From Escherichia coli (GTDB lineage Bacteria; Pseudomonadota; Gammaproteobacteria; Enterobacterales; Enterobacteriaceae), in the NCBI RefSeq assembly GCF_003334335.1, contig NZ_QOWQ01000046.1: a DNA stretch of 32,332 nt. One strand, written 5' to 3'. Positions 3,001-6,000 of this stretch are shown here, one piece after another; the first letter of the stretch is position 1, and each line of letters opens with the position of its first letter. Made by a program: the position numbers.

Positions 3001-6000
3001 AGATAGACATCAGCGAGACAGAATCAAAATAGGTATTCGGTTTAATGACTATTTTAACTGACATAATTCCCTCCGTAGGTTTGGCTCAGCGCACAACCAT
3101 CGGCCATGCCATACAGCATGTCGCAGCCGGAACTGGAGCCAATATGTTTAATTTTTTCTATTGCCTGAGTTGCGTTCCCAGGGATGTCATAAATAATGTT
3201 GTGAATAAAACGATGAATATTTTCCCGGCAGCGTTGTTGTAATGCGGCTTCCAGCGTTATGGCACTTAATAATGTGGTATTATTTTTGCCGCGTTGCAGA
3301 CCGAGATAAAATTCCTCTTTGTATTTTTCCGCCGGATGCCCGGGAATAAATAAAATAAGCGCCAGACCTGTTAAATAATCGTCGGCTGATGGCGTAAGGC
3401 CAATCCCTAACCCCATCATACTGGCGACCGCTGAGGCGATATTTTGTTTATCGTTTACGGCCTGAATAACTGCCCGTCGTTTAATATGTAATTCTTTATT
3501 TAACGCCTGATAAAACGGATTATCGCCGCGATAATTAAACAGGGTTTCATTTTCCCCCAGGTGCTGATGAATAATGTCGTGCCACTGTAGCCAGGCGATA
3601 AGGTGAAAATTCACAGCGGTCATTTGCAAGGTTGGGGACAGCCAACGCCGACAACGACTCATCTCTATATGAAGATGTTGACCAACCGTAATACCTTGAT
3701 CGTCAAACTGAACCTTATCACCATGCCGGAACAGATCATCAAAGTGACTGAGTGCCAACCGACAACTGTTTGGCGCATTGTCGTACTCTTCACAAAGCAG
3801 CGTCAGCAACTGCTGGCGAGCCGGGAGTGCGATATTTACCGCTCTGGCAAAGACCTGTTCAACCTGTCCTTGCCCCCGCTGCGCCAGAAAATCCGCATCC
3901 GCAGTTAGCGCCCACACACACCGTCTTTCTGGTGTGTTGATAGCAAGCCTCCCGGTTTATGCACCTGCGGCAATCAGTAACTGCGCAATCTCTTCAAAGC
4001 CCCGTTCCCGCGCCAGTTCCAGTGGCGTTTTGCCATATTTATCGGTCAGATGCGGGCTGGCACCGTGTTCCAGCAATAACTGCACAATCGCCTGCTGTTT
4101 AATACCACCATCATTAAGCACAATCGCTTCCAGTAGCGGCGTCCAGCCTACATGGTTGGTCTGGTTAACGTTAATCTCCGTATGCGCCAAAAGCTCTTTT
4201 ACAATACTTAAATGGCCTTTTTCACAGGCAGGCGTCAGGCCGACACCGCCAAAACGGGTTACGCAATTAAGATCGGGTTTAGCCGGTAAAATAATTCGTA
4301 GTAGCGTTAAATCATCGTTCAGACAGCTAATTAAAAAAGGATTTAAACAGGTATGATCTTGCTTATTAATATCCGCTCCGGCATCAATTAATGCCTGAAC
4401 GCAAGCATATTGCTGATATAAACTTGCCAGCGTAATTGCCGTTTTCCCCTGACGATCGCAGGTATTAATATCGACACCCAGCGCAAGGCAGGTTTTTACT
4501 TTATCGATATCACCCTGTTGTGCAGCCAATAAATAGTCGGCAGGTAGATTTTTTATACTCATTCACATTCCCCTGGTTTTTGTGGCTGTTTTCGATGAAT
4601 TGAGAATAGCAACGATAATCTGATAAAAGAACCCGCTTAAATTTAATTCGCCGTATCTCGCCTTTTTGTTGAATAATATTCAACAATCTTTTCGCAGTGT
4701 GCGGTAGTGCAATATTTGTTTCTTTGACCCGATACCCTTTCACTCAATCAGGTTTTATTTCTCTATAGTCTGCACATGTAAGAGTAGCTTTCGTCCATGT
4801 CTAACCAGAGGGGAACAAGATGAACGGACTCACGGCAACGGGTGTCACCGTCGGTATTTGTGCAGGGCTTTGGCAGTTAGTGTCTTCACATGTCGGGCTC
4901 TCTCAAGGATGGGAATTATTAGGAACCATTGGCTTCGTCGCCTTTTGCAGTTTTTATGCCGCAGGCGGCGGTAAATCGGGGTTTATCAGAAGTCTGGCGG
5001 TTAATTATTCCGGGATGGTGTGGGCGTTTTTCGCCGCGCTGACTGCTGGTTGGCTGGCCTCTGTAAGTGGACTGTCCGCGTTCTGGGCGAGCGTAATTAC
5101 TACCGTACCCTTCTCGGCGGTAGTGGTCTGGCAAGGGCGTTTCTGGTTACTGTCCTTTATTCCCGGTGGCTTTCTCGGCATGACGCTGTTTTTTGCCAGC
5201 GGGATGAACTGGACGGTGACGTTACTGGGTTTTCTGGCGGGTAACTGCGTGGGGGTAATTTCAGAATATGGTGGACAAAAATTAAGCGAAGCGACGACTA
5301 AACGCGACGGGTATTAAAAGTTATTCAAAAATGATTATCTATCTTTAACCGATACCTCTACAGTCATAGCTGGAGAAATTCATAGTAGATAATGGCGAGA
5401 ATGGTTTAATGAACTCAATTTTTACCGAAGAGAATCTGTTGGCATTTACTACCGCTGCGCGTTTTGGCAGCTTCAGTAAAGCCGCAGAAGAGTTGGGTTT
5501 AACCACTTCCGCCATTAGCTACACCATTAAGCGTATGGAGACGGGGCTGGATGTGGTGCTGTTCACTCGCAGTACCCGCAGCATTGAGTTAACGGAGTCC
5601 GGGCGTTATTTTTTCCGCAAAGCTACCGACCTGCTGAATGATTTTTATGCCATCAAACGCAGTATCGATACTATTTCGCAGGGCATAGAAGCGCGTGTGC
5701 GCATTTGTATTAATCAGCTGCTTTATACGCCCAAACACACCGCACGCTTGTTACAGGTGCTGAAAAAGCAGTTTCCTACCTGCCAGATTACCGTCACCAC
5801 CGAAGTGTATAACGGCGTCTGGGATGCGATTATTAATAATCAGGCCAATATCGCCATCGGCGCACCCGATACACTACTGGACGGCGGCGGTATTGATTAC
5901 ACTGAAATTGGCGCGATTCGCTGGGCTTTTGCTATCGCCCCGGATCACCCGTTAGCCTTTGTGCCGGAACCCATCGCCGAAAGCCAACTGCGTCTCTACC

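Follow-up and report, generated by a model that had tools for sequence, protein, structure and literature searches.

A conserved interrupted dyad in front of yahD in Escherichia coli: a probable recognition site for the LysR-type regulator YahB

Introduction

LysR-type transcriptional regulators (LTTRs) bind an interrupted dyad with a T-N11-A core, the recognition site (RBS, or ‘LTTR box’), whose centre lies at about -65 (range about -55 to -80), together with a weaker activation-binding site of lower symmetry, near -35 and on the same helical face. Here we describe a palindrome resembling such a box in the spacer between yahD and yahC, within 32 332 nucleotides of Escherichia coli DNA (contig NZ_QOWQ01000046.1; referred to as the window, with positions counted from its first base). 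Judged by comparative sequence analysis, the site is a probable LysR-type recognition site, an element of an ordinary kind, and we consider it likely that it is the high-affinity site for YahB in the promoter of the yahDEFG(-yahIJ) operon. The genes yahB and yahC–yahJ are still unexplained in E. coli K-12 and are almost silent in the laboratory; the literature on yahB, yahC, yahD and yahE–J yielded no study of the region, no description of the site was found in the records searched, and the exact motif string did not occur in the published literature searched.

The two named families nearest to YahB in NCBIfam are AllS (267 bits, cut-off 372) and PunR (238 bits, cut-off 345). AllS is the LysR activator of the allD and allF operons in the allantoin regulon (PMC12535856). 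The operator of PunR (YdhB), found by phylogenetic footprinting in the punR–punC spacer, is a 23-bp palindrome, and PunR bound it only when adenine was present (PMC8376909). The proposed YahB site is likewise a 23-bp palindrome, but its half-sites are arranged as TTGA-N7-TCAA, whereas those of the PunR operator (TsttwTCAAwAwwwTTGaaGGCA) are arranged as TCAA-N5-TTGA, and the two are not interchangeable. The likeness to AllS lies in the targets, allFGH-allK being paralogous to yahFGE-yahI, and in the proposed role of YahB, by which both proteins would be LysR activators of a pathway for carbamoyl compounds; allS, however, sits elsewhere in its own cluster.

Compared with LTTR systems in general, the yahD dyad is interrupted around a T-N11-A core and stands in the promoter of an operon that adjoins the regulator gene, divergently in most genera; a degenerate conserved block lies three helical turns nearer to a promoter with a poor -35, and a related box is found in front of the regulator gene itself. 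The locus departs from the classic layout in E. coli, where yahC intervenes and yahB is not directly divergent, and in Herminiimonas and Pasteurella, where yahB is the last gene of the target operon.

Results and discussion

An inverted repeat conserved in front of yahD

The window is K-12-like DNA in reversed orientation relative to MG1655 (Table 1). An initial annotation had reported a perfect 17-bp palindrome at 4668–4684, unlikely to have arisen by chance. The 17-mer, GTTGAATAATATTCAAC, is present at that position; its length is odd, and it is an 8+1+8 inverted repeat around A4676 whose reverse complement mismatches it at the centre base alone. It is in fact part of a longer element, because the pairing runs 2 bp further on each side to give a 10+1+10 repeat, TTGTTGAATAATATTCAACAA (4666–4686). 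By post hoc estimates from 5000 dinucleotide-preserving shuffles of the spacer, a repeat with an arm of at least 8 and a loop of at most 1 arises in 0.72% of shuffles and one with an arm of at least 10 in 0.04%, the latter being expected 0.12 times in the whole 32-kb window.

In order to examine conservation, we scanned for YahB in one genome per species, which gave 80 loci with YahB 79–99% identical; yahD could be placed in 78 of these, spanning about 20 genera and containing 70 distinct dyad sites. In all 78 loci the dyad is the best palindrome match upstream of yahD, lying 105–190 bp from the yahD ATG and 67–607 bp from the next gene on the opposite side. The 70 distinct sites define a 23-bp element (box 1) with the consensus ATTrTTGAat-N3-atTyAAyAAT, in which positions -10, -9, -6, -4, +4 and +7 do not vary at all; the information content of each of the five central positions is 0.4–1.1 bits. 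The T-N11-A core falls on T4670 and A4682, its T (position -6) being present in all 70 sites and its A (position +6) in 64. A position weight matrix (PWM) was used to scan the window, 953 kb of the related loci and two stretches of MG1655. Box 1 scores 31.6 bits against a window background of -54 ± 14.5, and only six other matches in the 953 kb reach 12 bits, four of them being copies of the second box described below. Outside the dyad and three further conserved blocks, the spacer cannot be aligned between loci.

These data bear directly on the possibility that the palindrome is a chance feature of an A+T-rich spacer with no function. In its favour are the expectation of 0.12 per window and the fact that the perfect inner part of the repeat is an allele (see below), but conservation of the arms reaches from Escherichia to Providencia, Aeromonas and a betaproteobacterium, in a fixed geometry within a spacer that is otherwise unalignable. 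Chance is thus scarcely credible, and the conservation data refute it to the extent that a comparison of sequences can.

A second explanation is that the palindrome acts as a nucleic-acid structure, whether a DNA cruciform, an RNA hairpin, a terminator or an attenuator. A 41-nt stretch folds as single-stranded DNA with -6.6 kcal/mol (z = -4.3), and a weak Cappable-seq start (score 2.6) at U00096.2 334293 (+), equivalent to window 4773 (-), which is upstream of the dyad and opposite the TATAGT box conserved at yahC (4763–4768), is oriented toward yahD and would give a transcript running through the palindrome. However, the stem is A+T-rich and has no T-run, the scan of 4450–4950 contained no terminator-like site, there was no match in Rfam, and the majority E. 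coli allele loses the inner pairs. Nor are there compensatory changes: the covariation score of the arms (0.167) does not exceed the shuffled mean (0.178), being equalled or surpassed in 449 of 500 shuffles, and at positions 5 and 8 the arms are complementary in only 34 and 31, respectively, of the 70 sites, the arms varying independently with R on one and Y on the other. We therefore rejected the hairpin, for which there was neither an Rfam match nor covariation, and regard a structural role as very unlikely. Conserved arms without covariation around a variable centre indicate instead a site for a symmetric protein dimer.

Alleles within Escherichia

Of 4477 matching E. coli records, 1539 contain the exact K-12 53-mer, so that the perfect palindrome belongs to about a third of E. 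coli genomes. Its centre reads AATAT, against TGATG in the majority allele. The four other E. coli strains sampled, Escherichia sp. E1V33 and E. whittamii all carry TTGTTGAATGATGTTCAACAA, with 8-nt arms and a 5-nt centre, and E. albertii carries TTGTTGAATATCATTCAACAA. Because other members of the genus read a different centre, the conserved feature is the pair of 8-nt outer arms, and the fully perfect palindrome is an allele of it. No RefSeq annotation lies under the match in the E. coli genomes.

In E. coli PCN061 (NZ_CP006636.1 368564–369941), a 601-bp query taken around the spacer matches as two pieces spanning approximately 1.4 kb, with an IS1-like transposase annotated beneath, and we therefore place an IS1 insertion within or near the yahD–yahC spacer of that strain.

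A predicted promoter module in front of yahD

Alignment of the upstream regions in the sense of yahD shows four conserved islands: block 1, the dyad, block 3 and GTTGCTATTCTCA. The last contains the pattern TGnTAnnnT in all 78 loci, and its final base lies 73 nt (73 loci) or 74 nt (five loci) from the dyad centre. This distance stays rigid while the predicted yahD leader varies between 25 and 109 nt. We read the pattern as an extended -10, which would put the yahD start near 4596 and the dyad centre at about -80. In NC_000913.3 the dyad corresponds to 335155–335177 and the predicted start to about 335246. A simple promoter and terminator scan of 4450–4950 found nothing, and the predicted promoter is recognised only through the conservation of TGnTAnnnT; it has no good -35, which fits an activator-dependent promoter.

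Block 3, the proposed activation-binding site, is centred 32 bp, or about three helical turns, to the promoter-proximal side of the box 1 centre, with the start of its GAAT 27 nt (72 loci) or 28 nt (five loci) from the dyad centre. It is weakly dyad-like (GGCGAAT-TAA-ATTTAAG), with a PWM score of -17.6, approximately 2.5 standard deviations above the background of -54 ± 14.5. Block 1 lies on the distal side of the dyad, at a fixed gap of 10 nt across the Enterobacterales, and may represent one half of a CRP site, belong to a promoter for the divergent transcript or bind another factor; in Herminiimonas a full palindrome, GGCGCACA-N7-TGTGCGCC, is found further upstream.

A second box and the arrangement of the genes

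At 10.1 bits, the window's second-best PWM match is found in front of yahB. This box 2 recurs as (A/G)GTGTTAAA-N5-(G/A)TTCAAAA in the same place in most loci, whether yahC is present or not, with a median score of 7.4 bits against a background 95th percentile of -3.8; no clear copy was found in Providencia, Aeromonas and some Buttiauxella loci. We propose that box 2 is an autoregulatory site of yahB. The spacer is only 178 bp long in Cedecea-type loci, where 67 bp separate box 1 from the yahB ATG.

The LysR gene yahB is directly divergent from yahD in most genera. There is no yahC between yahB and yahD in Citrobacter, Enterobacter, Leclercia, Lelliottia, Buttiauxella, Serratia, Providencia, Cedecea, Atlantibacter and Aeromonas; it is found there only in Escherichia, Kluyvera, Klebsiella, Raoultella, Pseudocitrobacter and a few other loci. 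As box 2 is kept in either case, yahC lies between two older boxes. The initial annotation had placed the palindrome in a divergent yahD/yahC promoter: the yahD side of that description holds, while yahC is present in only some of the genera, between the site and yahB.

In a Neisseriaceae bacterium, CLB008 (L086, 1352–1843), a DUF1097 (YahC-like) gene ends an operon of allF/G/H-like genes that is divergent from the yahB orthologue, which suggests that YahC is functionally tied to the pathway rather than being an unrelated insertion.

Table 1. Position of the genes and proposed control elements in the window.
Feature	Position	Strand	Description
yahG	99–1517	-	
yahF	1517–3064	-	
yahE	3054–3917	-	
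yahD	3957–4562	-	Ankyrin-repeat protein
yahD-yahE-yahF-yahG operon	99–4562	-	Proposed target; runs past the window into yahI and yahJ
yahD–yahC spacer	4563–4819		257 bp, 38.9% G+C
Predicted extended -10 of the yahD promoter	4603–4611	-	TGCTATTCT; pattern TGnTAnnnT, within the island GTTGCTATTCTCA
Block 3	about 4633–4655	-	yGryGAAT-N5-TTTAArCGG; centre 4644, about -48; proposed activation-binding site
Box 1 (23-bp dyad)	4665–4687		Centre 4676; proposed YahB recognition site; includes the 17-mer and the 10+1+10 palindrome
Block 1	4698–4715		TGCAC-N4-CGCACA on the yahD-sense strand (+ strand TGTGCGGTAGTGCAAT); distal to box 1
yahC	4820–5317	+	DUF1097; separates box 1 from box 2 in some genera only
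Box 2	5310–5332		GGTATTAAAAGTTATTCAAAAAT; weaker copy of the dyad that runs over the yahC stop codon; centre 88 bp before the yahB ATG
yahB	5409–6341	+	LysR-type regulator; proposed cognate factor
pdeL	6383–7477	-	

The site in more distant relatives

The site and yahB were found together in every locus examined, through three gene arrangements. In the betaproteobacterium Herminiimonas (YahB 71% identical), where yahB ends the yahD operon, the best match in 21 kb is ATTGTTAAGAAAAATTCAAAAAT (24.5 bits), in front of yahD and followed by the equivalent of block 3 and by TTGCTACTGT; the TGnTAnnnT element occurs here too. Zophobihabitans (YahB 74%) has yahB divergent from yahD and carries ATTATTGAATCTTAATCAATAAT (27.8 bits), with block 3 and TGnTAnnnT. 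A Klebsiella-like locus (YahB 71%), which consists of yahB, an ankyrin gene and an amidohydrolase gene only, keeps the dyad and block 3 (20.3 bits), with yahB divergent from the ankyrin gene.

Pasteurella testudinis (YahB 61%) again has yahB as the last gene of the operon. A 12+3+12 palindrome, TTACCTTTGAAT-AAA-ATTCAAAGGTAA, lies 120 bp upstream of yahD; it keeps the inner TTGAAT/ATTCAA, and both outer segments are changed symmetrically (ACCTTTGAAT-AAA-ATTCAAAGGT). The recognition helix of the YahB orthologues, T[TPS]SA[IV]SY[TA]IKR[MI]E, is conserved and shows too little variation to be related to these altered outer arms. A TATAGT box puts the Pasteurella palindrome near -70. Near-consensus CRP sites flank it at 320–335 (TGTGATCAGCCTCACA) and 407–422 (TGTGATGTTTGTCACA) of the locus (L084), the second being approximately 41.5 bp upstream of the start predicted from TATAGT, and these positions suggest joint control by CRP in that organism. 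In the orthologues from Neisseriaceae (53–58% identity), we found only short TGAA-N5-TTCA cores in A+T-rich spacers, which were too weak to use.

Over loci L005–L081 the identities within the cluster are very uneven, at 79–99% for YahB, 86–99% for YahG, 77–98% for YahF and 37–95% for YahE. In Enterobacter, Leclercia and Lelliottia-type loci yahE was not detected, and approximately 140 bp separate yahD from yahF. Zophobihabitans has a single product of 817 residues in which the AllH-like and the AllF-like part are joined.

Probable identity of the binding protein

The initial annotation had suggested that the palindrome is an operator, of YahB or of a global regulator. The conservation supports an operator, and YahB is the favoured protein, being the sole regulator always linked to the site; among the products of the other cluster genes are an ankyrin protein, a membrane protein and subunits of enzymes. 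The global regulators fit less well. Operators of ArgR, FNR, CRP, ArcA or Fur, or of the neighbouring PdeL, have to be considered, because the TGAAT/ATTCA half-sites resemble an ARG box and TTGA/TCAA resemble FNR half-sites, because the paralogous allF operon is co-regulated by ArcA, and because pdeL adjoins the locus in E. coli. The ARG box is TGAAT-N4-ATTCA within an 18-bp box, arranged in tandem pairs 21 bp apart, whereas the dyad reads TGAAT-N3-ATTCA in K-12, with equivalent spacing across the genera, and lacks a partner box at 21 bp. The FNR site is TTGAT-N4-ATCAA and the CRP site TGTGA-N6-TCACA, but the dyad reads TTGAA-N5-TTCAA, giving 15 bp rather than 14, and this spacing is conserved. 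ArcA sites are direct repeats, not inverted ones, and pdeL was detected in four Escherichia loci only, against the presence of the dyad in all 78. The search of 5426 E. coli genomes found no second near-identical copy of the site (median one place per genome), which also argues against another protein's operator, as does the related box upstream of yahB itself. We consider another protein unlikely, although the published chromatin immunoprecipitation data for YahB, described below, are on its side.

Several observations weigh against YahB as the binding protein, or against the promoter model built on it. Because YahB was the query that found all the loci, part of the association between yahB and the site follows from the sampling. 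Block 1 is not accounted for; block 3 resembles the dyad weakly and could bind another factor, and in Pasteurella the equivalent position holds a CRP-like site. The dyad, at a predicted -80, lies upstream of the usual, textbook -65. The Cappable-seq data show no start at the predicted yahD position, which is uninformative because the promoter is silent: normalised RNA sequencing counts in glucose medium were about 2 to 25 for yahC–yahG, compared with 76 for yahB. Finally, the published experiment on YahB-8myc by chromatin immunoprecipitation with exonuclease digestion (ChIP-exo), carried out in glucose M9, gave three peaks with a signal/noise below 2, none of them at this locus in either coordinate version; the same data set has no peak at the dyad for any transcription factor, again in either version. 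Binding that depends on an effector, as with PunR, would explain a negative result for YahB when no inducer is present.

The supplement of Gao et al. 2021 lists, for another tested regulator, a strong ChIP-exo peak at 334131–334162 with a signal/noise of 55.9 and yahC as the nearest gene. If the coordinates are those of U00096.2, the peak corresponds to about 4904–4935 of the window, inside yahC and approximately 230–260 bp from the dyad.

The operators of the paralogues give no support either way for the assignment to YahB. There is no comparable dyad in the allD–allF spacer (best PWM match 8.1 bits, no inverted repeat found) or in the allS–allA spacer. From this absence in the allD–allF spacer, and from the different half-site order of PunR, it follows that each paralogue has its own box.

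Proposed mechanism and significance

With YahB as the binding protein, a tetramer would place one dimer on the dyad (about -80) and the other on block 3 (about -48), and the effector-bound complex would recruit RNA polymerase to the extended -10 promoter, which lacks a usable -35. Box 2 would mediate the autoregulation of yahB. By analogy with the paralogues AllS and PunR, the effector is probably a ureido or carbamoyl compound, and its absence would leave the operon nearly silent in glucose medium.

The genes yahE, yahF and yahG are paralogues of the oxamate carbamoyltransferase genes allH, allF and allG, respectively. It is possible, though we put it forward only tentatively, that box 1, block 3 and the extended -10, together with box 2, form the control region of a catabolic cassette, uncharacterised and horizontally mobile, which might comprise the ankyrin protein, the oxamate carbamoyltransferase paralogues, a carbamate kinase and an amidohydrolase, and might be distributed over Gamma- and Betaproteobacteria. 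If this is so, the dyad offers a direct handle for finding the inducer by means of a PyahD reporter, and the two G-to-A changes that perfect it in approximately one-third of E. coli genomes would be a regulatory polymorphism altering the affinity of YahB. A YahB operator would introduce no new type of mechanism; the operator, the predicted promoter and the pairing of regulator and target nevertheless turn these genes into a testable problem, in which the PyahD reporter could reveal what induces the pathway, a paralogue of the oxamate branch of allantoin breakdown, and from this what its substrate is.

Other palindromes in the window

A perfect 9+9 palindrome, GTTATGTTATAACATAAC, lies at 29504–29521, 9 bp upstream of the ATG of an 88-residue open reading frame (29530–29796, beginning MKPNIHPEY). 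The reading frame resembles ykgM, the paralogue of the gene for ribosomal protein L31, and the palindrome looks like its known Zur box. Another palindrome is found at 29966–29982, just downstream of the short open reading frame that follows, and a long hairpin with a T-run at about 29987–30025 looks like a terminator.

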